Source: Candidatus Jorgensenbacteria bacterium RIFCSPLOWO2_01_FULL_45_25b
GTDB taxonomy: Bacteria; Patescibacteriota; Minisyncoccia; UBA6257; GWB1-50-10
Length of the DNA: 52,633 nucleotides
NCBI GenBank assembly: GCA_001781035.1
Contig: MFKK01000034.1
Span: 1 to 52,633 of the forward strand
Direction: 5' to 3'
Shown: in pieces, positions 3,738-51,120 of the stretch
Layout: every line of letters starts with the position of its first letter
Numbering within the stretch: the first letter of the stretch is position 1
The notes under the pieces: generated by a model
The model's database searches: none
What the model saw: only the letters and a program-made list of their open reading frames with translations
What the model was told of the DNA's origin: nothing
Translations under genes and position numbers: made by a program

Positions 3738-5192
3738 ATGACTAAAAAACACGTACATTTTGTGGGGGTTGGAGGCATAGGAATGAGCTCTCTTGCCCGA
3801 TGGTATTTGGCTCAAAATTGGGCTGTTTCGGGGTCTGACCTCTCCCCCTCTGAAATTACCAAAGAGCTTGAAAAGGAGGGCGTACGGGTCAAAATTGGGC
3901 ACAATTCCTCAAATTTGCCTCAAAAATTGAATGTTTTGGTGTATAGCAACGCTCTTCCGCAGAATACCCCTGAAATTGAGGGGGCGCGGAAATTGGGGGC
4001 TTCTGTTGTGAGCTATTCCGAGGCGTTGGGCGCTATTGCCAAAACATATACGACGCTTGCGGTTGCGGGGTCGCATGGAAAGAGCACGACGACCGCGCTT
4101 TTAGGTTTGTGTCTTCTTTCGGGCGGTTTTGACCCAACCGTTATTGTCGGAACGAAGGTGAAAGAGTTCGGCGGGAAAAATTTTCGTTTTGGAGGAGGCA
4201 AGTTTTTTGCGCTTGAGGCGGATGAGTATAAGGGAGCGTTTTTTCAATATGTTCCAACCTCTCTTATTATCACGAACATTGATAAGGAGCATTTGGATTT
4301 TTACAAGACGTTCGCGAACGTGAAGAGGGCGTTTTTGAGGTTTCTTGGGCAGGCGGTGCCGGGTGGGAAGTTTGTTTTCAATAGAGACGATGCTGTTTTG
4401 TGGGGATTACGGGCGCAGATTTTGCGTATCGCGAAAACGAAGCATTCGGAGATTCTTTGGTATTCGCTTCACTCCCCCATGGCGAAGAAGATTGAGCGAG
4501 TGTTGCGAATTCCCGGCAGGCACAATGTTTCAAACGCGCTCGCGGTTTATACGCTTGCCCGCGCGCTTGGCGTATTGGAGAGACGGATTTTTTCTGTCTT
4601 CCGAACATTTTCCGGTACGTGGAGGAGGATGGAGTACTGTGGCGATCTAAGGATCGCCACCGCGGATGAGCGCGGACTTGTACGCGGAAAAACGCGGAAA
4701 GAAACAAATGTTGAGGTGTACGATGATTACGCGCATCATCCGACGGAAATAAAGGCGACACTCTCTGCTTTTAAGCAATCCCCGTTAGAAGCAAAGCTTC
4801 TAACGGGGCAAGCCGCGAACGAACGCAAAAAGCGGAAGATTGTGTGCGTGTTTCAGCCTCATCAGGCGCATCGATTAAAATCGCTTTTTAAGGAGTTTGT
4901 TGATTCATTTCAAGATGCGGACGGACTTATTCTTCTTCCAACGTATCAGGTTCCTGGTCGGGATATTGCTTTGGACAAGCGATATTCATCCGAGGCGCTC
5001 GCGAAAGCAATCATCAGAAAGTATCCCCGAAAGCGTGTGTTGTATCTTGAAGACCCAAAAAGGCTGAAAGAGGAGATTTTCAATATGTTGCGCGGACTCC
5101 CCTCTTCGGACGGAGTTTTGGTTATGATGGGAGCGGGAGACATTTTTCAATTAACTTCGGAGTTGATTAAAAAAAGAATCTCTAATATCTAA
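3738..5192 (+). CDS. murC: UDP-N-acetylmuramate--L-alanine ligase
   Basis: Motifs 'HFVGVGGIGMS', 'GSHGKSTT', 'DDYAHHPTEI' and 'VFQPH' are present. The last codons and the stop lie inside a heptamer-repeat element. Confidence 0.9.
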   Translation: MTKKHVHFVGVGGIGMSSLARWYLAQNWAVSGSDLSPSEITKELEKEGVRVKIGHNSSNLPQKLNVLVYSNALPQNTPEIEGARKLGASVVSYSEALGAIAKTYTTLAVAGSHGKSTTTALLGLCLLSGGFDPTVIVGTKVKEFGGKNFRFGGGKFFALEADEYKGAFFQYVPTSLIITNIDKEHLDFYKTFANVKRAFLRFLGQAVPGGKFVFNRDDAVLWGLRAQILRIAKTKHSEILWYSLHSPMAKKIERVLRIPGRHNVSNALAVYTLARALGVLERRIFSVFRTFSGTWRRMEYCGDLRIATADERGLVRGKTRKETNVEVYDDYAHHPTEIKATLSAFKQSPLEAKLLTGQAANERKKRKIVCVFQPHQAHRLKSLFKEFVDSFQDADGLILLPTYQVPGRDIALDKRYSSEALAKAIIRKYPRKRVLYLEDPKRLKEEIFNMLRGLPSSDGVLVMMGAGDIFQLTSELIKKRISNI

Positions 5193-5324
5193 TATCTAAT
5201 TTCTAAATCCTAAACAATTTCAAAATATTAATCTCAAAAACGTAGTTTGATAGGCTCATTATAAAGTTTTGAATTTTGACATTTGAGATTGTTTAGAAAT
5301 TGGGGTTTAGAAATTAGAGATTTT
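5176..5324. repeat. AATTTCT-family heptamer-repeat hairpin element filling the murC / nuclease-gene spacer
   Basis: The left arm is 'aatctctaatatctaatatctaatttctaaatcctaaacaatttcaaaat'. The right arm is 'attttgacatttgagattgtttagaaattggggtttagaaattagagatt', an imperfect inverted repeat of the left. Confidence 0.8.
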
Positions 5325-5325
5325 T

Positions 5326-6087
5326 ATGTTGGATTATAAAAATGTTGAGGAATTTAAATCCCAATGCGGGTATGAAATTGACGGCGTGTGGTATCCGCGG
5401 GTGACGAAAATTGTTGATATTAAGTCAAAGCCCGCGCTGTATCGTTTTTACGGCGCGATGAAGAGTTATCAGGACGCCGAGCGCATGAAGGAGCAGTCCG
5501 CGATTGAGGGGACGCTTGTGCACGATACGATTGAGGCAATATTAACCGGACAGGAGCCTTCCATTCCTCTCTTAATCAAGCCTTCGGTGGACGCCTTTTT
5601 GAAGTTTTTAGAAGACAATTCCATTGAGGTTCAGACTCAATACGTTGAGTATCGTCTTTTTCATCCCACGCATCGCTACGCGGGAACGCTTGACGCTATC
5701 GCGACCATTCACGGCAAGACGGGAATTTTGGACATAAAAACGTCGCAGGCGATTTATAGGGATTATAACTTACAGACATCGGCCTATATGGCGGCGATGA
5801 TAGATAAGGTGCCGTCGCTTCAGGCGCGATGGATTTTGCGCATTGACCAGAATCAGAAGTGTCTTCAGTGCGGAGCCGTGTTGCGCACCAAGGGAGGGAA
5901 CGGAAAGATTCGCACCCAGTGGAATAATTATGTTATGCAGACGTGCGCGCATGAGTGGGGGCCGGCTCGCGGGCTCATTGAGCTTAAGGAGTTTCCTTTT
6001 TGGGAGAATGATTTTGAGGCGTTTTTAGGAGCGAAACGACTGTGGGAGTGGGAACATGAGGAGATGTTGAAGAAGATTGGGTATTAG
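5326..6087 (+). CDS. PD-(D/E)XK nuclease, RecB/Cas4-like
   Basis: The motifs 'GTLDAIA', 'GILDIKTS' (D...D-x-K) and 'QTSAY' (the Q-x-x-x-Y of RecB-family nucleases) are present. There are four Cys residues: one N-terminal, plus 'CLQCG' and 'TCAHEW'. Confidence 0.7.
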   Translation: MLDYKNVEEFKSQCGYEIDGVWYPRVTKIVDIKSKPALYRFYGAMKSYQDAERMKEQSAIEGTLVHDTIEAILTGQEPSIPLLIKPSVDAFLKFLEDNSIEVQTQYVEYRLFHPTHRYAGTLDAIATIHGKTGILDIKTSQAIYRDYNLQTSAYMAAMIDKVPSLQARWILRIDQNQKCLQCGAVLRTKGGNGKIRTQWNNYVMQTCAHEWGPARGLIELKEFPFWENDFEAFLGAKRLWEWEHEEMLKKIGY

Positions 6088-6145: not shown

Positions 6146-6380
6146 CGTTCGCGACACGTTCCTACCGGGACCGGCGGTTGGTTTGCTCTAGTGGCAAGCA
6201 ACCATTGTTTCTATAATCACTGCTCCATGTTTTTGAATTTCCCCCGCCACACTCCCTTCACTCGGGCGCTCCGGGGCGCTAGCCCAAGTCTTACCCTCGT
6301 TCAAGGAGTGTGGCAGGGGAAATTATGTTGTTGTGGCGATAGAGTGTAACGCTTTTGGCGTGCGGACCCCGTGTGATCCA
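6146..6380 (+). ncRNA. Candidate structured RNA, enlarged variant of the 'CCUACCGGGA' family (copy C)
   Basis: A TATAAT box lies at 6134-6139. The 5' part 'GUUCCUACCGGGACCGGCGGUUGGUUUGC...GCAAGCAACC' matches copies A and B, including the hairpin with a bulged nucleotide. A long internal stem pairs 6237-6256 with 6305-6324. The closing pair is ACACG (6154-6158) with CGUGU (6370-6374). Confidence 0.35.
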
Positions 6381-6468
6381 TAAGCTCGCGTATGAGAAGA
6401 AAGAAACCCCCCAATCTTCTTTTTTGTGGGGAGGGGTGAGTTGGAAACCATGCCCCGAGTCCTTCCTC

Positions 6469-7221
6469 CTAGAGAGTCCATGAGAGCGCGTCTTGCGCTC
6501 TAATCATGGAGGATTGGATTTCTCCTCCGCAGAAACGGAAGAGGTGGTCTTTTATGAGATTCGCCGATCCCAGTATCGCTTCATCCGTGATTGCCAGACT
6601 TGTCGCTTCGCAGAAAAGCGCGATGTCTTGAGAACTCTCCGTGATTTTCGCCGTGTCGCTGTCTTTGTAGTTCCATCGGCGCGTGAGCACTTTTTTGCGG
6701 TCGGCGTACACCACCTCTCCTTTTTGTGTCGTTTCAGGCTCGCCACCGCCCAGCGGAAGGAATTGTTCTTCTCCCTCGCTGAATCGGAGAGTAATGTCGT
6801 CCTCTATTTGCGACAGGTCATAACCGCCTACCGGCAGGAACCATTCCAGTTCCGCGAGCAGATAGCAGTTCACCACCACATTGATGATGGGGGCGCTGTT
6901 TCCACGGACGATGCGCCGTAGAAGCGCTTCCGCGGTTGGTCGATGATCTTTCGGGTTCACTCCGAAACTGCGGTAGGTTTCCCGCCAAGCAAGCACGGTT
7001 GGATGCGTGTTGACGTCTTCGGGCGAGTATTGCGCTCGAAACTCATTCTCCATCTTCGCTTTGAGCGCGGATAGTTCTGGGTTTTCGCGCGCGTTCTTAA
7101 TACCTCGCGCGATTACGACGCCAATGCGGAGCGCCGGATACTTCTCGGCGACTTCCTTTTGGATTGAGAAATGGAGCTTGTTGTTTATAATTGCAGTTTT
7201 TGGGCAATAAGGGCGGCACAA
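6469..7221 (-). CDS. B3/B4 (PheT-like tRNA-binding) domain protein; start uncertain
   Basis: The homologous part begins near 'KLHFSIQKEVAEKYPALRIGVV'. No ATG or GTG lies upstream of it, so I took the TTG at 7221. ATT/ATA at 7191/7188 are alternatives. The long ORF-track N-terminus (to 7443) overlaps the upstream kinase gene and is not credible. Confidence 0.55.
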   Translation of the reverse strand: MCRPYCPKTAIINNKLHFSIQKEVAEKYPALRIGVVIARGIKNARENPELSALKAKMENEFRAQYSPEDVNTHPTVLAWRETYRSFGVNPKDHRPTAEALLRRIVRGNSAPIINVVVNCYLLAELEWFLPVGGYDLSQIEDDITLRFSEGEEQFLPLGGGEPETTQKGEVVYADRKKVLTRRWNYKDSDTAKITESSQDIALFCEATSLAITDEAILGSANLIKDHLFRFCGGEIQSSMIRAQDALSWTL

Positions 7222-11602: not shown

Positions 11603-11630
11603 AAACCCCGACCACACGGTCGGGGTTTGT
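11603..11630 (-). terminator. Intrinsic terminator-like hairpin downstream of the HTH gene
   Basis: The GC-rich stem 'aaaccccgacc acac ggtcggggttt' is flanked by T/A runs on both sides. Confidence 0.6.
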
Positions 11631-20434: not shown

Positions 20435-20496
20435 TCTCTAAATCCTAATTTCTAAATTCTAAACAATCTCAAAATTCAAATAATCAAAAAACATTT
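20435..20496. repeat. AATTTCT-family half element filling the frr / rseP spacer
   Basis: The sequence 'caatctctaaatcctaatttctaaattctaaacaatctcaaaattcaaataatcaaaaaac' shows the same heptamers plus the 'AAACAAT.TCAAAA.TCAAAT' core as the other copies. Confidence 0.75.
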
Positions 20497-25356: not shown

Positions 25357-25545
25357 AAGTATTTAATCTCTAATCTCTAATTTCTAATCTCTAAATAATC
25401 TCAAAACTCAAATATCAAATGTTTAAATACTTTTACGTTTTAATTTCTAATTTCTAATTCCTAATTTCTAAACAATATAAAAACTCAAATATCAAATTAA
25501 AACATTAGGTTCCTGCGCGACTTGAGGTTCCCCCCCCGTGCCTTT
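25357..25545. repeat. Two tandem AATTTCT-family elements filling the rplQ / rplM spacer
   Basis: 'aatctctaatctctaatttctaatctctaaataatctcaaaactcaaatatcaaat' is followed by 'taatttctaatttctaattcctaatttctaaacaatataaaaactcaaatatcaaat'. Confidence 0.8.
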
Positions 25546-37941: not shown

Positions 37942-39786
37942 TCATTTTTTCGCGAGGGCTTCGCGGAGCGCTTTTCGGAGTTCGTTTACATCATCTTTTG
38001 ATGATTTTTCTTTTTCTTTTGGTTTCATATCTTTTGGTTTTAGGTCGGCGAGCCCTATTTCTTTTTGTTTTTCGCCGTATTTTATGGAGGCAAATTTTTC
38101 TTCCAGTTTATCAATGATGGACTTGTGACTGCCATCCCGAACTTCTCCTCCCCGCTTTTTTTCTTGAAAATGCTGTTTTTTTTGATTTTGTCGCTCCACT
38201 TCTCCGGATTTTTCTTTGCCATTTCCCTCTCCCGCTATTTTTTGTTTTTGCTTGCGCATTTCTTTTTCCTCTTCCACTTCAATTCCTATTTCTCCGAGGT
38301 TCGCGAAGTATTTGTTTTTCGCTTTTTTGAAATCTTTTTCGCTTGGAATCGCGGTTATTTTTCCCTCTTTCACTTTTTTCAGACAGTCAATGCAATAGAT
38401 TGGCTTTCCTGGCGTCGGTTCAAAATTTAAAACAGTTTCTTTGCCGCAGACGTCGCAGACAGCCTCTACTTTCGGCGCTACGTTGGTGTTGCTCCACTTT
38501 TCAATTTCACTCTCAACTATTTTTCTCGGGCGGGCGTAGAGTCTTCTTGAGCGTTCAATGATTTCTTCCGCAGGCAGTACCGTTCTGGGAATTTTGAAGG
38601 GCGGAAGGGTGGTCGCGGAGAAGGGTCTTGATGTGATGCCGTCTACCATGAGTTTCAGATAAATGTGATAGTTTGGAATTCCTACCATGTCTATGGGAAC
38701 GAATTCCGGTTCAAATTCGCTTTCCAGAAATTCAGCGTCTGTCGCGCCTATACGGAAGATGACCATAGTTCCCGCGTTTCCGAAGACGGCATCGCGGACT
38801 TTTGTTGAAATATCCGTTTCTAACTGTCCGATATATTGATGGGCAATTGTGAGATTTAGGCGGTACTTCCTCGCTTCGGAGAGGACGTTCGCGAACGAGT
38901 CTGTCGCGAAATTTTGAAACTCGTCCACGTAGAGATAAAAATCCAGGCGTTCTTCTTCGGGAATGCGCACGCGTTCCATCGCGGAGAGCTGGATTTTGGT
39001 GATAAGCATGCCTCCCAGAAGCGCGGAATTATCCTCCCCTATCTTTCCTTTGGAGAGGTTTATCAGAAAAATTTTTCCGCTGTTCATGATATCAAAGATG
39101 TCTATGGTGCTTTTGTTTTGCCCAACGATGTTTCGGATGAGCGAGGTTGATAAGAACTGTCCCACCTTGTTTTGAATCGGCGCGATTGCTTCGTTTCTGA
39201 ACTGGTCGCGCCATTCTTCATACTCATGCACCCAGAAGGCGCGGACGACGGGGTCTTTTATGTTTTCCACGATTCGTTGGCGGAAATCCTTGTCTACGAG
39301 AATCCGATTGATTCCGAGGAGAGTGCTTCCGGGCGTTTCTACGAGCGCGAGGATGGCATTGTTTAAGATATATTCCATGCGCGCCGACCAGACGTTTGAC
39401 CAGATTTTTGTAAAAATACTCATCAAGCCCGAGGCGACCAGATTTTTATATTGCGGGTCGGGCATTTCAAGCACGTTGAAGCCTATGTGATATTCGGTAT
39501 CCGAGGGGTTGAAGTATATTACGTCCTCTTTTCTTGACGCGGGAATTTTCGAGAGGACGCTTTCCACGAGCTCTCCGTGCGGGTCTACAACGCACAGGCC
39601 TTCGCCGTTTTCAATATCTTGAACAATGAGATTGTGGAGGAAGGTGCTTTTTCCCGTTCCGGTTTTTCCGACGACGTAGAGATGCTGGCGCCGATCTTTT
39701 CGCTTGATGCCGAAGAGCCTGTTTTGGTTTCTAAAGTTGGTTCGCCCAAAATACACGACATCATCCTTGTTGCGAGCCTTTTCCAT
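37942..39786 (-). CDS. Second soluble VirD4/TraD-like ATPase with a C-terminal zinc ribbon and a Lys/Glu-rich tail
   Basis: It is a paralogue of 7749-9200: 'VGKTGTGKS', 'DPHGEL', 'FYLYVDEFQN', 'RKYRLNLTIAHQYIGQL'. It adds 'CDVCGKE...PGKPIYCIDC' and a ~150 aa charged tail. I placed the start at ATG 39786; the ORF-track start is 39834. Confidence 0.75.
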   Translation of the reverse strand: MEKARNKDDVVYFGRTNFRNQNRLFGIKRKDRRQHLYVVGKTGTGKSTFLHNLIVQDIENGEGLCVVDPHGELVESVLSKIPASRKEDVIYFNPSDTEYHIGFNVLEMPDPQYKNLVASGLMSIFTKIWSNVWSARMEYILNNAILALVETPGSTLLGINRILVDKDFRQRIVENIKDPVVRAFWVHEYEEWRDQFRNEAIAPIQNKVGQFLSTSLIRNIVGQNKSTIDIFDIMNSGKIFLINLSKGKIGEDNSALLGGMLITKIQLSAMERVRIPEEERLDFYLYVDEFQNFATDSFANVLSEARKYRLNLTIAHQYIGQLETDISTKVRDAVFGNAGTMVIFRIGATDAEFLESEFEPEFVPIDMVGIPNYHIYLKLMVDGITSRPFSATTLPPFKIPRTVLPAEEIIERSRRLYARPRKIVESEIEKWSNTNVAPKVEAVCDVCGKETVLNFEPTPGKPIYCIDCLKKVKEGKITAIPSEKDFKKAKNKYFANLGEIGIEVEEEKEMRKQKQKIAGEGNGKEKSGEVERQNQKKQHFQEKKRGGEVRDGSHKSIIDKLEEKFASIKYGEKQKEIGLADLKPKDMKPKEKEKSSKDDVNELRKALREALAKK

Positions 39787-39927
39787 GTTTTTATTATAGC
39801 AGATAACTTCATTTGACCCCGTTAGAAAGAACAAATATTATTCTGTCTTTATATACTCTTCTTGTTGCGACACAGGGGGACTTTCTAACGGGGTTTGACT
39901 TTTTTTCGTTTTTTATGTTTAGTTTAT

Positions 39928-40430
39928 GGGCGAGTATATCAGGCAATAGCTCCGCTTTTGCGGAGAGGAAAGTCCGGACACTCGGCCTTATGCGCGGCAC
40001 AAGGAAATTCTAATTTCTAATCTCTAAACCGACCGAAATTCGCAGTCAGTTTAGAATTTAAGATATTAGATATTAGGATTTTCTCGTGCTGTGCGTGAGG
40101 CAAGGGTAGCGGGTAATGCCCGTCGTCCGCGAGGATAGAGGTGCGAACAGAGACGTCTGGGCGCGAAAGCGCCTAGAGAGCCCAATCCTAAGCTAGATGG
40201 CTTAATTCCGCCATAGGGAGAAAAAAGCGGAAGTGAAACGGTCCCGACGTTTCAGTCGGGACTCCGACCTCGTAAGAGTGTCGGATGCTAAATCCTTACT
40301 TGAGTGCAAGGTCGCGCCAGCAGTGCTCCGCACTGGTTGGAGAACCGCTTGATCTTGAGGGCAACCGAGAGACCAGATAAATTATTGCCGCTCTTTTGAG
40401 TACAGAATCCGGCTTACGATATACTCGCCC
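39928..40430 (+). ncRNA. rnpB: RNase P RNA (bacterial type A-like) with insertions
   Basis: P1 pairs 'GGGCGAGUAUAUC' with 'GAUAUACUCGCCC'. The P4 strands are 'GAGGAAAGUCCGGAC' and 'ACAGAAUCCGGCUUA'. A terminator 'CCCCCUUCGGGGGUUUUGUUUU' follows. At ~503 nt it is longer than the usual 350-400 nt. Confidence 0.9.
40003..40083. repeat. AATTTCT-family hairpin inserted inside RNase P RNA
   Basis: 'ggaaattctaatttctaatctctaaac ... gtttagaatttaagatattagatattaggattttc' sits on the stem GCACAAG/CUCGUGC, shortly 3' of the P4 5' strand. Confidence 0.8.
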
Positions 40431-40447
40431 CCTTCGGGGGTTTTGTT

Positions 40448-45900: not shown

Positions 45901-46037
45901 GATCTTTTGTCTACCGGCATATCCTACTTTCCCAGTCAAAAAAGACAAGTATCATCAGACGAAAACGCTTTCACTTCTGTGTTCGGAATGGGAACAGGTG
46001 GATCTCGTTTACGCTAAACACCGGCAGGCAAAAGATC
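45901..46037 (-). rRNA. rrf: 5S rRNA with an extended terminal helix
   Basis: The reverse complement contains 'CCACCUGUUCCCAUUCCGAACACAGAAGUGAAAGCG'. The ends 'GAUCUUUUGCCUGCCGG' and 'CCGGUAGACAAAAGAUC' pair. Confidence 0.9.
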
Positions 46038-46450
46038 TAAAATGTTTTGTTGAAAGTAAACTTTTTAAGGTAGAAGTTTATCCTCTGCGTGAGGTATAAA
46101 AGTGTATTGCTCGAATAAGCAAGGTGGGATTTATTAGTACTCCTCGGCTCCATCCCTTGCGGGACTTCCACCTAGAGCCTATCAACCTGGTAGTCTTCCA
46201 GGAATCCATGATGCATTATCTTGGGAGGGGCTTCGTGCTTAGATGCCTTCAGCGCTTATCCCTTCCGAACATAGCTACCCAGCGATTCACCTGGTGGCAA
46301 AGCTGGTAGACCAGAGGTTCGTTCAACCCGGTCCTCTCGTACTAGGGTCAACTTCCCTCAAGCATCGTAACGCCGACAGTAGATAGAGACCAACCTGTCT
46401 CACGACGGTTTGAACCCAGCTCGCGTACCACTTTAATTGGCGAACAGCCA

Positions 46451-46483
<33 letters not shown>

Positions 46484-46497
46484 GTGAGCCGACATCG

Positions 46498-47331
46498 CAT
46501 CTTCTCTATTATTACTAATAGCGTGGACTATATCTTCATCCTTTTTATCTTAAAAAGGAGCTGACGTGTTAGCTGGAAACCATGTTTCCAACTCTGCCTC
46601 GTTGCAACCCAATGCATAAGGCAAGTCTCTACGGGGTTATAACTCAATTTTATATCTCATTGAAGGAATGATTTCTTTATCTAGTATTTTTCGCAATATA
46701 GCAAGTGAAGATTTTAGAAAACGCAACCGATAATACTGTTTATCTTTATTAAGAGTCGCTTTTAGATTGAGCTTTTGAAGTGCTCGCACTAACTTTTTCT
46801 GATCTTGAATGCTAAATTGTTGAGTATTCAGATATATGTCATTGGTTTTACAACGACTTCCATCATCCATGAACCAGACTGCTAAACTTGTTGGATCTAG
46901 GGTAAGGTTTGCAGGAATTACCTTTTTCGTTTTTCTATAAAAGAGTTGATGCAGAGCGGTTAGCTCTGATAACTGCTTTGAGTAGAAACGATAGGCAATT
47001 CTTGTTCCATTACTTTTCCGCATTTTGGGCGGAGAACCGGAAATATTTTTTAATATTTTATATTTCCAATCAACATATTCTTTTTGGGCAAAAGAATGAT
47101 TGATTTCCAAAAGAGCATGTTTTCTTTTTGGAATGATTCTTAGATAACCATCTCCCAAAAGCGTTCCAACAATCAATGATTTTTGTTGTTGAGTTAAACT
47201 TCCCACGGTATTGTCCATATAATGATTCTATCATTTCACTGTATGGAGTTCACCGTTATAAGTCAGATTTTTCTTTGATCGCATCACAGCGATCGGGAAT
47301 GAGATTACTCTCATTGCACCCCAATGTGTTA
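46498..47331 (-). mobile_element. Intron (group I-like) in 23S domain V carrying a LAGLIDADG ORF
   Basis: On the plus strand the conserved string 'gagccgacatcg|aggtgcc' is interrupted by ~834 nt. Joining the flanks restores the 'GGCACCUCGAUGUCGGCUC' consensus, at about E. coli position 2500. Confidence 0.8.
46637..47218 (-). CDS. LAGLIDADG homing endonuclease (double-motif)
   Basis: Both motifs are present, 'LIVGTLLGDGYL' and 'LAVWFMDDGS'. The gene lies wholly within the 23S intervening sequence. Confidence 0.9.
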   Translation of the reverse strand: MDNTVGSLTQQQKSLIVGTLLGDGYLRIIPKRKHALLEINHSFAQKEYVDWKYKILKNISGSPPKMRKSNGTRIAYRFYSKQLSELTALHQLFYRKTKKVIPANLTLDPTSLAVWFMDDGSRCKTNDIYLNTQQFSIQDQKKLVRALQKLNLKATLNKDKQYYRLRFLKSSLAILRKILDKEIIPSMRYKIEL

Positions 47332-47952
47332 AGGTGCCGAGCTCCGTCGTCGATGTGGACTCTCGGACGGAACCAGCCTGTTATCCCCGGAGTAGCTTTT
47401 ATCCGTTATCTCCGACCTTCCTATAAAGATTCGTCGGGTCGCTAAGCTCTGCTTTCGCACCTGCGCGACTTGTATGTCTTGCAGTTAAGCTGGCTTTTGC
47501 CTTTACGCGTCCAGCCCGATTTCCATCCGGGCTAAGCCAACCTTAATAGACTCCTCCGTTACTTTTTGGGAGGAATCCGCCCCAGATAAACTGCCCACCA
47601 GGCACTGTCTCCACGGCGTTTTGCGCCGCAGGTTAGATATTAACAACTAAAAGATGGGTATTTCACTGACGGCTCCATCCCATCCGAAAACAGGACTTCA
47701 AAGCCTCCCCACTATGCTACGCATCCAGACATTAATACCAATACCAAGCTACAGTAAAGCTTCCGGGGTCTTTTCGTCTTACTGTCGGTATCCCGCGTCT
47801 TCACGGGAATCGCATTTTCATCGGGCTCCTCGTTGAGACAGTTCTCCAGTCGTTACACCTTTCGTGCGCTCCGGAACTTACCCGGAAAGGAATTGCGCTA
47901 CCTTAGAACGGTTATAGTTACCGCTGACATTGACGAGGGCTTCGGACAGTAA

Positions 47953-48160
47953 GCCGCACCTCACTACGGTTCGGTGCGTACAGAAATAAATAGAAATTGA
48001 TAGAAATATGCTTCGCGAAATTAACCCCACCCCTCCCTCCCCTAAGACTTAGGGGAGGGAGACGGAGGGAGAGGTTAGTCTCTATTGAATTTCTATGAAT
48101 TTCGTCCCGAATAAAGTGAGGGACATATTTCTGTCGCATCGAACGATAGTGAGATGCGAC
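47953..48160. other. ~190-nt expansion segment at the tip of 23S helix 68 (E. coli ~1870)
   Basis: The conserved flanks 'GGUAAC..CCCUCGUC' and 'GGUUAACGAUGG' are separated by ~215 nt here, against ~28 nt in E. coli. The insert is a long imperfect hairpin with the apical stem 'cccctccctcccctaagacttaggggagggag' and the inverted arms 'acagaaata..' / '..tatttctgt'. Confidence 0.75.
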
Positions 48161-48830
48161 CTCCATCGTTAACCTTCTCGCATCGGTCAGGTGTCACCCC
48201 CTATACATCCTCTTACGAGTTCGCAGGGAGCTGTGTTTTTGTTAAACAGTCGCCAGAGAAACTTTCGCTGCGGGCGTGCTTACGCGCGCCAGGCCTTATC
48301 CCGAAGTTACGGCCGCTTTTTTGCCGAGTTCCTTAACGAGGACTCACCCGTTCCCCTTGGGCTTCTCGCCCTATCCACCTGTGGCGGTTTCCGGTACGGA
48401 TTCCATACTTCAACCTTAGAGGTTTTTCTTGAACGCGCGCTCTATCAACTTGCGTCGACACGTATGCCAACACTTGCCTCTACTCTGGAGTTTGCGACTA
48501 AACGCAGAGACGCGGATTTGCCTACGCCTCACTCTCGAGTCAAGGATGCCAAACCATTAAGACACTTAATGTACTGCGCGTTGTCCCCCCATCGGACTAT
48601 GAAATACGGAAGGGCTGGAATATTAACCAGCTGTCCATCAGCTTCGGCTTTCGCCATTGCCTTAGGGCCGCCTCACCCTCCGCCGATTCGCGTTGCGGAG
48701 GAAACCTTGGATTTTCGGGGAGCCGGTTTTTCACCGACTTTGTGATTACTCATGCCAGCATTCTCTCTTCCTAACGCTCCAGTCGCCCTCACGGATCAAC
48801 CTTCAGCGCATTAGGAATGCTCTCCTACCA

Positions 48831-49008
48831 CGCCTCGCGCTTTGCGCGAGGAAATCCTAAGCTCTAAATTCTAAATCCTAAACAATATCAAAACTCAAAT
48901 GACCGAAACTCAAAACATTTTGTTTTAAGTGTTTGGATTTTGAATTTAAAATTTGTTTAGAGTTTAGAGATTAGAATTTAGAATTTCCTTGTGCAAAGCA
49001 CAAGACAT
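48831..49008. repeat. Intervening sequence at 23S helix 45 built from an AATTTCT-family hairpin
   Basis: Between the conserved 'CCGAAG' and 'GGUAGGAGAGC' blocks lie three hairpins: CUUGUGC-UUU-GCACAAG, a ~140-nt heptamer-repeat hairpin, and CCUCGCGC-AAA-GCGCGAGG. Confidence 0.8.
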
Positions 49009-49684
49009 TCGCATCTTCGGTACCTTGCTTAGCCCCGGTAAATTTTCGGCGCCATCATCCTCGAATAGTGAGTTGTTACACACTCTTTAAAGGATGGCTA
49101 CCTCTGAGCCAACCTCCTATCTGTTTATGGATAATGACCACCTTTCACACTTAGCAACTCCGATACCCTTGCGGAGATCGGAGTCCCGACTTCACGTCGG
49201 GAGAATTTAGGGACCTTAGATGGCGATCTGGGCTCTTCCCCTCTCGACCACGGAGCTTAGCCCCCGCAGTCTGACTGCTAATGAACAACTCATGGTATTC
49301 GGAGTTTGATTGATCGTCCGAGCTTGCGCCCAGTGACGATCATCCAGTGCTCTACCCCCACGAGTCTATTTAATTAACGCTAGCCCGAAAGCTATTTCGG
49401 AGAGAACCAGCTATTACCAAGTTCGATTAGTTTTTCGCTCCTTACCCCAATTCATCCGAGAGTTTTGCACGGCTCACCGGTTCGGACCTTCATTCGATTT
49501 TACTCGAACTTCATCCTGATCAGGGCAAGCTCACCTGGTTTCGGGTCTTACACGTACTGCTTAATCGCCCTATTAAGACTCGCTTTCGCTACGCCTCCTC
49601 CCGCTTGGCGGGATTAGACTTGCAACACATGCAAACTCGCTGGCTCATTCTTCAATAGGCACGCCGTCACTCGCCGTTGCACAG

Positions 49685-49846
49685 CAGCGGAATTTCTAAT
49701 TTCTAATCTCTAATTTCTAAACAAACCCAAATGATAGAATGACTAATGACTAAAACAATTTAAGTTTAGACATTACACATTTTGACATTAGAAATTTATT
49801 AGATATTAGTAATTAGGAATTAGTTATTCCGATGCTGCGCATCGGT
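49685..49846. repeat. Intervening sequence at 23S helix 25, hairpin cassette copy 1
   Basis: The cassette reads 'gcacagcagcgg aatttctaatttctaatctctaatttctaaac ... gatagaatgactaatgactaaaacaattta ... attagaaatttattagatattagtaattaggaatt ... ccgatgctgcgc'. Confidence 0.85.
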
Positions 49847-50202
49847 TGAGCTCCGGCTCTTTGTAAGTAAGTGGTTTCAGATACTATTTCATCGCCCTCA
49901 CCGGGCTGCTTTTCACCTTTCCCTCACGGTACTGGTTCACTATCGATCACCAAATGTATTTAGCCTTACCAGATAGTACTGGCAGATTCCCTCAAGGTTA
50001 TCTTGGCCTTGAGGTACTCAAGAACAAGAACGATTGGTCACTTTGTTTTCGCCTACGAGGCTTTCACTCACTATGGCTGTCCTTTCCAGAACATTTGACT
50101 AACAAAGTGATTTGTAACCAATTACCAAATAAACTTCCGTAGCTCCGGAAATTTCCGAAGCTTCAGAAGTTTTTTGGAATGTTCTCGCCTTACAACCCCC
50201 GC

Positions 50203-50374
50203 CGCTGCACAGCAGCGGAATTTCTAATCTCTAATTTCTAATCTCTAATTTCTAAATAAATCCGAATGATAGAATGACTAATGACTAAAACAATTTACGT
50301 TTAGACATTTAAGCATTTTAACATTAGAAATTTATTAGATATTAGTAATTAGAAATTCCGATGCTGTGCATCGA
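50203..50374. repeat. Hairpin cassette copy 2 in 23S domain I (E. coli ~270-280)
   Basis: It has the same base stem, heptamer arms and central 'gatagaatgactaatgactaaaacaattta' core as 49685-49846. On the rRNA strand it lies just 3' of 'GUAGCGGCGAGCGAA..CAGCCC'. Confidence 0.85.
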
Positions 50375-50474
50375 CAGGTTTGGGCTGTTCCCTTTTCGCT
50401 CGCCGCTACTTGGGGAATACAAATTTGTCTCTTTTCCACCAGGTACTTAGATGTTTCAGTTCCCTGGGTGCGCT

Positions 50475-50631
50475 CCACTGCGTAGCAGCGGAATTTCTAA
50501 TTTCTAATATCTAATTTCTAAATAAATCCGAATGATAGAATGACTAATGACTAAAACAATTTACGTTTAGACATTAGAAATTTATTAGATATTAGTAATT
50601 AGGAATTAGTTATTCCGATGCTACGCACTGG
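50475..50631. repeat. Hairpin cassette copy 3 in 23S domain I (E. coli ~140)
   Basis: It is the same cassette, lying between 'CCGAAUGGGAAAACCC..' and 'GGGAACUGAAACAUCUAAGUA' on the rRNA strand. Confidence 0.85.
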
Positions 50632-51120
50632 TTACCGCGTTTTACACGGCAGGGTTTTCCCATTCGGAAATCTCCGGATCAAAGGTTGCTACACACCTCC
50701 CCGAAGCTTATCGCAGTTACGCCACGTCCTTCATCGCCATTTGGTGTCAAGGCATCCACCACCTACCCTTAACTTGCTTACATGAGCAATTTCACTTTTA
50801 TCTTACATATATGATATGCAAGAAACTTCTACCTTAGAAAGTTTACTTTCTTAACTGCCTATTTCGCCTGCTTGCGGGGCGAAATGAGGCTATGAAGTTT
50901 TCAAAGTTCAAGAAAGCATCCATACCGTCGGAGCGCCAATGTTGAGGTCGGCTTGTTTCGGCCGCAACATTGAGGCTCTTTTTCTGTCTTTGTTTCGCGT
51001 GTGAAGAAATAAAAATCCCGCCAGGTCTTGGCGGGCCGACACATCAATAATATAGGGCTTTCTTCACCCGTGTCTCCCACCTTGATATGTATTGGCTTTT
51101 TTCATTAGCAGTAAGTACCA

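Follow-up and report, generated by a model that had tools for sequence, protein, structure and literature searches.

The stretch of DNA analyzed here, referred to as the window, comprises the 52,633 nt of contig MFKK01000034.1 from Candidatus Jorgensenbacteria bacterium RIFCSPLOWO2_01_FULL_45_25b. It contains an RNase P RNA gene (rnpB) on the plus strand, and an Rfam search located a 5S rRNA gene (45912–46025) and a 23S rRNA gene (46115–50779) on the minus strand. Both rnpB and the 23S rRNA gene hold a copy of the same small module of two abutting hairpins. A preliminary description had considered this module either a common docking site or a small mobile insertion. Our analysis indicates that the two copies are probably members of a mobile DNA family of double-hairpin repeats in Paceibacteria-type bacteria of the Candidate Phyla Radiation (CPR), fixed as structural helices in their host RNAs. 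In the following, L-numbers (L002, L019, L152, etc.) denote individual loci retrieved in the analysis.

39931–40431, plus strand: RNase P RNA gene of bacterial class A (RF00010, 94.9 bits, E = 1.7e-29, full model 1–367)
40241–40286, plus strand: 46-nt block present in the window rnpB; L147, L152 and L157 have a clean gap here, between GAAACG and GC(U/A)AAAUCC
40241–40262, plus strand: hairpin A of rnpB, GUCCCGAC-GUUUCA-GUCGGGAC, assigned to P13 by cmscan and present in the minimum free energy fold; its stem is the family consensus YCCCGAC/GTCGGGR
40263–40286, plus strand: hairpin B of rnpB, UCCGAC-CUC-GUAA-GAG-U-GUCGGA-U, assigned to P14 by cmscan; it has the family architecture of CTCCGAC, inner stem, one bulged base and GTCGGAG
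46115–50779, minus strand: 23S rRNA gene (RF02541, 2155.9 bits), 4665 nt against a 2925-position model, with several insertions
49155–49206, minus strand: 52-nt expansion in the 5′ strand of 23S helix H41, between CCCUAA and CUAAGUG, where the Rfam bacterial consensus has 7 nt
49184–49202, minus strand: hairpin A of the 23S copy, UCCCGAC-GUGAA-GUCGGGA
49158–49183, minus strand: hairpin B of the 23S copy, CUCCGAU-CUCC-GCAA-GGG-U-AUCGGAG, in which a U-A pair compensates the C-G pair of rnpB

The rnpB copy runs from U40242 to U40286 on the plus strand and the 23S copy from U49202 to G49158 on the minus strand, each in the sense orientation of its host RNA, which confirms the positions and orientation first reported for them. 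Each copy folds into a pair of directly adjoining hairpins, with energies of −29.8 and −27.4 kcal/mol and z-scores of −5.2 and −4.7. The folds also bear out the details noted earlier: the stem of hairpin A is the same in both copies, including a seventh U-A pair, a double change converts a C-G pair in the stem of hairpin B of rnpB to U-A in the 23S, and the loops of hairpin B (GUAA and GCAA) are of the GNRA type. Compensatory change would preserve the pairing because both copies now serve as helices of folded RNAs. By hand count, the module is about 68% G+C, compared with a median of 43% for the host loci. No Rfam family matched the module; only the rnpB and tRNA matches appeared.

Local alignment of the two modules yields 36 identical columns out of 44, including a 14-nt exact run (AGTCGGGACTCCGA), with a Smith–Waterman score of 44. 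A chance likeness between two GC-rich hairpin pairs merits consideration, as hairpins halve the independent information in a sequence and the 3′ flank GCUAA(A/G)U belongs natively to both RNAs. However, 500 shuffles of the module scored 18 on average and 27 at most, and 2000 random GC-rich double hairpins built to the same plan stayed below the observed value (maximum 37). Natural controls agree, with twenty other double hairpins from the same 23S site being only 37–57% identical to the rnpB module. We therefore regard chance as a negligible explanation, and the relatedness of the two copies, as originally claimed, stands.

A metagenome scan with the pattern CCCGACGN{3,6}GTCGGGRCTCCGA returned at least 120 matching stretches. 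Among the matches listed, to which the counts of copies below also refer, hairpin B is closed by (C)GTCGGAG in 107 of 120, although the pattern did not demand it, and 113 closed copies were analyzed for their context. The bases flanking hairpin A, before CCCGAC and after GTCGGG, covary (C-G in 62 copies, T-A in 39 and other combinations in 9; n = 110), which defines the unit as two abutting 7-bp hairpins. The family consensus reads YCCCGAC-loop-GTCGGGR followed by CTCCGAC-variable-GTCGGAG, with a unit length of 38–55 nt. The interior of hairpin B ranges from a 6-nt loop to nested hairpins and typically comprises an inner CYC/GRG stem with one bulged C, as in the window copies; this interior and the loops of both hairpins vary freely across the family. 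In a short form, CCCGACGCTTCGGTCGGG-G-CTCCGACCGAAGCGTCGGAG, the two hairpin loops are reverse complements of each other, making the unit an inverted doublet able to fold either into two hairpins or into a single long one. A further helix closed by the flanks was considered and rejected: positions −2/+1 to −4/+3 pair no more than base composition predicts, so the bias towards CAR before and YTG after the unit reflects a target or terminal preference, not a helix. This flank bias resembles D-loop DNA.

Besides four rnpB copies (L027, L064, L088 and L131, all Rfam-confirmed) and one 23S copy (L092), the family occurs in both orientations relative to host genes and also between genes. A fuzzy search of the 931 kb of retrieved DNA recovered 159 copies, compared with none after shuffling. 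For the window, the expected count of the pattern CCCGACGN5GTCGGGACTCCGA is 0.00. The preliminary description had thought a wider occurrence and covariation worth looking for; the double hairpin occurs in more than 100 unrelated contexts in metagenomes, with a covarying seventh pair (n = 110). A link to phages is limited to a single match in IMG/VR. The searchable literature yielded no account of a repeat of this sort from CPR, and the family is apparently undescribed. Two single hairpins with CCGAC/GTCGG cores in the window, at 11608–11623 (AACCCCGACCACACGGTCGGGGTT) and, within the 23S region, at 47412–47437 on the minus strand (CCCGACGAAUCUUUAUAGGAAGGUCGGAG), may be solo relatives of it.

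Twenty of the 113 copies (~18%) lie deep in long open reading frames (ORFs) and are read through, typically encoding ..APTPE.VGVPT.SVG... Their orientation is opposite to that of the rnpB and 23S copies in 17 of the 20. According to Pfam, the host proteins include SecA (two copies), GyrB, UvrD, PheT, a class II aminoacyl-tRNA synthetase, a CCA/polyA polymerase, a type II secretion system ATPase, ComEC and a radical SAM enzyme. SecA offers a direct comparison of alleles: among orthologues that are 84–92% identical, the unit is present or absent at two sites, and in some of them a variant in a different frame lies close by. In the DNA, filled and empty alleles of the first site differ by a precise in-frame 45-nt block, CTCCGAC..GTCGGAG-TCCCGAC..GTCGGGA, between GTAGAAG and AAGATAAA. 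The L107 SecA exactly matches proteins that carry the annotation SecA from Candidatus Nomurabacteria.

A further 17 of the 113 copies (~15%) lie within 120 nt of a tRNA gene. At a minimum of nine loci, excision of the unit joins its flanks into a 14–28-nt copy of the 5′ part of the neighboring tRNA, with the unit in the D-loop. Examples are L060 (5208–5285), which contains a perfect 23-nt copy of nucleotides 1–23 of a tRNA-Thr, 23 nt upstream of the intact gene, and L120 (4380–4625), where a second tRNA-Val copy beside the intact one holds three units, in the D, anticodon and T loops. Similar partial 5′ duplicates, comprising the acceptor strand and D arm, were found in L028, L042, L089, L105, L111, L117, L124 and L129; such duplicates lie 15–60 nt from the intact gene, on either side and in either orientation. 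This arrangement suggests a target preference or a partial duplication linked to insertion. We do not call these copies tRNA introns, because the sequence that most of them interrupt is a partial 5′ duplicate with the intact gene next to it; excision restored a detectable tRNA at one locus only, L074 (~1110–1240), where one unit lies in the D loop.

The range of contexts bears on how the units move. Spread at the RNA level, in which units would be reverse-spliced or ligated into loops and then reverse-transcribed, was proposed for the double-hairpin elements of Allomyces. This route would suit the lack of a target-site duplication at the SecA site, the insertion points in tRNA genes, which are hairpin loops (D, anticodon and T in L120), and the single orientation shared by all rnpB and 23S copies. 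On the other hand, the opposite orientation prevails among the ORF copies and is found in about half of the tRNA-associated ones, intergenic copies exist, and there is no linked reverse transcriptase, the RVT_3 match next to rnpB being an RNase HI domain. Given the copies in both orientations, in frame within ORFs and between genes, we infer that mobility operates at the DNA level; RNA-level mobility is less likely, and we judge it improbable. Of the proposed mobile RNA-level insertion, the mobility is strongly backed by more than 100 contexts and by presence and absence in SecA and rnpB, but it looks DNA-level.

In rnpB, the module occupies a canonical position. It forms two adjacent hairpins between GGGUGAAA-GG and G-AAACC at model positions ~161–205, and cmscan aligns 40240–40286 to P13 and P14 of RF00010. 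The designation of the module as accessory in both RNAs thus applies to the 23S, where it is a real insertion, and not to rnpB, where it is no addition relative to the family model. The L14 loop, GUAA, would be compatible with P13/P14-type tertiary contacts (L14 and L13 to P8 and P12), as judged from its sequence.

To place the window rnpB among its relatives, we made use of the conserved gene order PGK-DHHA1-RNase H-rnpB(-TrwB), which ties it to the orthologues in L147, L152 and L157 and allows homologues of the window RNase H to provide an unbiased sample of related rnpB genes. Nine related CPR loci from about six lineages (L147, L152, L157/158, L156, L160–162 and L039), found through RNase H homologues and synteny or, for L039, incidentally, and not through the module pattern, all match RF00010 and all lack the block. 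In the alignment with L152, L147 and L157, the gap corresponds exactly to the module and the flanks align well. Without P13 and P14, every empty locus reads either GUGAAACGG joined directly to CUAAAUCC, as in L039, L156 and L160–L162, or GAUGAAACG joined to GCAAAAUCC. The window RNase H is 65–76% identical to those of the empty loci, compared with 52% to that of the filled L027. The two helices are therefore not vertically conserved among the relatives sampled. The filled rnpB genes do have near-identical P13/P14 stems, but they were picked out by the module pattern, and the rnpB of L117, an ordinary bacterium captured incidentally (251.7 bits), has a normal P13/P14 of unrelated sequence.

The window rnpB was detected only by a permissive search, its 94.9 bits falling below the Rfam gathering score of 100. 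The rnpB genes of L088, L039, L161, L152, L147 and L157 likewise score below this threshold (55–97 bits) and are missed by default annotation. The scores are depressed because of P13/P14 loss and hairpin inserts.

At the 23S site, the extra sequence reported in the preliminary description was confirmed (52 nt against 7 nt). We take its position to be about 1014 in E. coli numbering, by a hand count from the well-known 1051–1108 fragment. Numbering through an E. coli collection was attempted and dropped, as the best match was a mislabeled 2.9-kb 'plasmid' with a foreign 23S. This entry, L142 (NZ_AP027616.1), is a circular RefSeq 'E. coli plasmid' consisting almost entirely of a 23S rRNA gene; it lacks the E. 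coli 23S strings for which it was searched and is probably a contaminant.

A scan of 185,579 species representatives for inserts of 30–60 nt between the conserved 23S flanks identified 21 representatives with exact flanks and inserts of 31–60 nt, mostly labeled as Patescibacteria/CPR phyla. Counting the window, 18 of the 22 inserts fold as two abutting hairpins and four as one longer hairpin. RNAalifold predicted both hairpins from nine short inserts, to which this consensus is limited because MAFFT misaligned the full set of 17 double-hairpin inserts, with their stems out of register; it contains 12 pairs, of which 7 show compensatory changes. The site thus behaves as an rRNA expansion segment, fixed in position across the clade and conserved in structure with covariation. 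Since such varied inserts fold as double hairpins, we regard it as a widespread CPR double-hairpin expansion whose sequence varies freely.

Within this variety, the window insert is 73% identical to the rnpB module and those of L019 and L092 are 69% identical, against 37–57% for the others. The flanks of L002 are closer to those of the window than the flanks of L019 are (84%/92% versus 64%/87%), yet the L002 insert is unrelated, which fits a CCCGAC flavor that does not simply follow descent. L092 carries, in addition to its 23S copy, a non-rRNA copy whose hairpin A is the same down to the loop. At two further variable sites of the L019 23S (6340–6565 and ~6700–6790; model ~312 and ~425), more CUCCGAC-type hairpins occur beside an AT-rich hairpin, and the L019 23S hairpin CUCCGACCUCGUAAGAGCGUCGGAG equals P14 of L064 and L131. 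Eight of the loci with inserts, L004, L005, L006, L011, L012, L015, L016 and L018, are labeled Gammaproteobacteria, Promethearchaeota or Thermoplasmatales; their inserts are of the same type as in CPR-labeled loci, with that of L012 closely resembling those of L014 (Nealsonbacteria) and L021, and on this sequence likeness they are probably mis-binned CPR contigs.

These comparisons speak to a simpler history, in which the rnpB P13/P14 was copied once into the 23S gene, or the reverse, independently of any dispersed repeats. The UGCUAA at the 3′ junction of both genes could have served as microhomology, and the window holds no other copies. Such a one-off duplication would leave unexplained the same flavor at the same 23S site in L019 and L092, the different insert of the closer L002, a site already occupied by double hairpins across CPR, and more than 100 dispersed copies with the same unit boundaries and architecture. 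The module at this 23S site and an rnpB lacking it are both observed among the lineages sampled, though in different genomes. We consider a one-off duplication very unlikely.

The function-based proposal, that one protein or RNA partner recognizes the double hairpin in both RNAs and elsewhere, draws on the pairing kept by compensatory change, the GNRA loops of both copies and the covariation of the seventh pair of hairpin A in 110 copies. Related rnpB genes also use hairpins with the CUCCGAC stem as P3, P12 and P14, and the L019 23S has them at three sites. Against a docking site stand the copies in both orientations relative to host transcripts, within ORFs and in pseudo-tRNA fragments, the free variation of the hairpin B interior and both loops, the different sequence held by the 23S site in most CPR, and the lack of any candidate partner among our results. 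The module is moreover absent from all unbiased related rnpB genes; this absence in relatives, across all of the roughly six lineages sampled, was an outcome that the preliminary description itself had named as damaging, and it argues against a conserved shared function. Apart from the maintained pairing, our results offer the idea no support, and a shared docking site appears unlikely to us.

Returning to a mobile repeat family, we propose that units would be inserted or lost as exact blocks wherever an extra hairpin pair is tolerated, namely at peripheral junctions of structured RNAs, in hairpin loops of tRNA genes, in protein surface loops (in frame) and in intergenic DNA. Two old copies would have been fixed as helices: one in RNase P RNA, where P13 and P14 join, and the other at the expansion site in the 5′ strand of 23S H41. 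The likeness between rnpB and the 23S would then reflect shared descent of DNA sequence, by insertion or conversion from family copies, and not shared function.

The direction of events in rnpB can be read in more than one way. We lean, tentatively, towards insertion of the element at a vacant P13/P14 junction, because every unbiased relative is empty, the block is a unit shown to insert elsewhere, and CUCCGAC hairpins also serve as P3 and P12 in related rnpB genes. A somewhat less favored but serious possibility is that an ancestral P13/P14 was kept in the window rnpB, seeded the family and was lost in relatives; the canonical position, the GUAA of L14 and an L13 loop close to consensus in L064 and L131 favor it. 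Conversion of an ancestral P13/P14 accounts for what likelihood is left. It is accordingly conceivable, though short of an even chance, that a selfish double hairpin, inserted where close relatives are empty, created or remade the P13/P14 of the window lineage, with the same family also supplying 23S helices. The mirror reading, in which a fragment of the RNase P RNA gene founded a genome-invading repeat family, would be equally unusual.

Several observations weigh against a mobile family as the source of the window copies. The block lies exactly at the canonical P13/P14 site, which fits vertical descent with precise loss in reduced relatives, and its loops look canonical, with GUAA as L14 and, in L064 and L131, GUAAAA as L13 where the consensus has GUAAGA. 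A tree of the rnpB backbone first grouped the window with the empty loci, but a stricter tree did not (bootstrap support for window plus empty loci 24/200), and the trees do not separate gain from loss. The 52.6 kb of the window contain no dispersed copies beyond those in rnpB and the 23S. The SecA site between GTAGAAG and AAGATAAA, the only one at which empty and filled alleles are cleanly resolved, shows no target-site duplication, and no transposase or other mobilizing gene was identified in the loci, which were not screened for PF01797. Finally, the retrieval pattern was taken from the window module itself and fixed both hairpin A and the 5′ half of the hairpin B stem, so that their sharing is circular. 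Independent evidence for the family comes only from the closing of hairpin B, the seventh pair, the architecture of the inner stem and the boundaries of the unit.

The strongest local match between rnpB and the 23S gene is unrelated to the double hairpin. It joins 39997–40029 to 48994–48962 with 32 of 33 positions identical and belongs to a second, AT-rich family of 100–150-nt hairpins built of heptad-like YCUAAU repeats, with one member in rnpB, four in the 23S gene and others between genes, including one at ~5.2 kb.

39995–40095, plus strand: AT-rich long hairpin with YCUAAU repeats in the 5′-domain hairpin of rnpB (−45.7 kcal/mol, z −6.8)
48850–48995, minus strand: sibling AT-rich hairpin in the 23S gene, after model position ~1218 (helix-45 region)
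~49675–49815, ~50210–50355 and ~50475–50600, minus strand: further AT-rich copies
5175–5330, plus strand: further AT-rich copy
25364–25471, 20440–20464 and 1219–1307: partial AT-rich copies

The helix-45 region is a classical site of intervening sequences (IVS) in 23S rRNA. The AT-rich hairpin of rnpB is absent from L147 and L152, where the alignment shows an indel. Compared with its nearest sampled relatives, the window rnpB therefore has two extra hairpin modules, each with a sibling in the window 23S, a pattern that intragenomic spread of hairpin repeats among tolerant sites of structural RNAs would produce. The same 5′-domain hairpin position is filled in L157 (2160–2290) by a different hairpin repeat, ATTCGTAT/TACGAAT, and looks like a hot spot for lineage-specific hairpin inserts. 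Repeats of this ATTCGTAT/TACGAAT type also flank double-hairpin units in L075, L077, L085, L094, L121, L127 and L133.

Elsewhere in the window, a LAGLIDADG_2 homing-endonuclease ORF (46637–47218, minus strand; E = 1.8e-42) lies inside the 23S gene and presumably belongs to a group I intron, of a kind often found in the 23S genes of CPR. Next to rnpB, and syntenic in L147, L152 and L157, lies a TrwB/TraG-like type IV coupling ATPase with a treble-clef zinc finger (37942–39834, minus strand). A search for tRNA genes found none in the 52.6 kb. The best relatives of the window proteins come from Paceibacteria-, Jorgensenbacteria- and Minisyncoccia-type Patescibacteria. For the window PGK, an exact look-up of the 394-aa ORF gave no match, and a homology database contains a 368-aa protein with 100% identity, so the start codon chosen for this ORF probably lies too far upstream.

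In position, size, two stacked hairpins, a GNRA loop on the second hairpin and one 3′ bulge, the rnpB module resembles the P13/P14 of class A RNase P RNAs (cf. L117). It differs from an ordinary P13/P14 in that about six related lineages lack these helices and its sequence equals a dispersed repeat, a likeness not known from other P13/P14. A miniature inverted-repeat transposable element would have terminal inverted repeats and a target-site duplication, and at the SecA site there is no duplication.

Among known palindromic families, the Rickettsia palindromic elements (RPEs) are short repeats found in intergenic and coding DNA and read through in housekeeping genes such as PheT (PMC1779305). 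The family described here likewise occurs in small-genome bacteria, with in-frame copies in housekeeping genes including PheT, SecA and GyrB, and its read-through copies in SecA are absent from close orthologues. RPEs, however, are 100–150 bp long and alphaproteobacterial, whereas the present units measure 38–55 nt, consist of two abutting 7-bp hairpins, belong to Patescibacteria and also reside in a ribozyme junction and an rRNA expansion site; we expect no sequence relation and treat RPEs as an analogue.

Double-hairpin elements of Allomyces mitochondrial DNA and repetitive hairpin-forming elements (RHE) of sponge mitochondrial DNA invade intergenic DNA, rRNA variable regions and, less often, protein genes, and the Allomyces elements reportedly lack flanking duplications (PMC2800124, citing Paquin, Laforest and Lang 2000). 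Our family shares with the Allomyces type the two hairpins, the dispersal, the presence in intergenic DNA and rRNA variable regions, the optional occurrence between relatives and the lack of flanking duplication, but it occupies a bacterial chromosome, including the rnpB P13/P14 junction and tRNA D-loops, and is an analogue only. GC-rich palindromes flanking tRNA genes in Neurospora mitochondria and the GC clusters of yeast mitochondria, as cited in PMC2800124, are comparable as GC-rich palindromes in an AT-richer genome, with tRNA-gene enrichment, optional presence in a protein gene (var1) and DNA-level mobility. Those elements are organellar and differ in sequence and architecture.

A REPIN is an inverted doublet of a short imperfect palindrome (PMC3116915), and the short form of our family is likewise an inverted doublet, with hairpin B close to the reverse complement of A, loop included. 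Repetitive extragenic palindromic (REP) sequences of gammaproteobacteria are extragenic by definition, unlike the ~18% of listed copies in ORFs and others in rnpB, 23S and tRNA genes, and REPs are tied to RAYT transposases (Y1 type, PF01797). For rRNA, IVS in helices 25 and 45 of the 23S and the CPR rRNA insertions of Tsurumaki et al. are lineage-specific extra sequences, and the surveys of CPR rRNA insertions counted inserts of at least 100 bp only (PMC11270868, PMC9297842). The 52-nt insert falls below this cut-off and differs from the surveyed IVS and introns in forming a branched double hairpin within one strand of a helix instead of extending a helix tip. By analogy, the family appears to work like RPEs, mitochondrial hairpin elements and REPINs while being a member of none of them.

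Taken as such, an apparently undescribed palindromic family resides in supposedly streamlined genomes and places 15-residue in-frame inserts in SecA, GyrB, UvrD and aminoacyl-tRNA synthetases. Its repeats can break Rfam and tRNA detection, as with the window rnpB below the gathering score and the interrupted tRNA copies that were missed, and they can mislead alignment-based phylogeny of rRNA and marker proteins. Many CPR of the Paceibacteria and Jorgensenbacteria type run RNase P without P13/P14, and at least one lineage has a repeat-derived or repeat-seeding pair. If our reading is correct, mobile hairpins would be a live source of helices for an essential ribozyme and for the ribosome, and insertion of ready-made hairpin pairs at tolerated junctions would be a route by which structured RNAs gain helices, for which filled and empty alleles are found in nature and are open to comparison.

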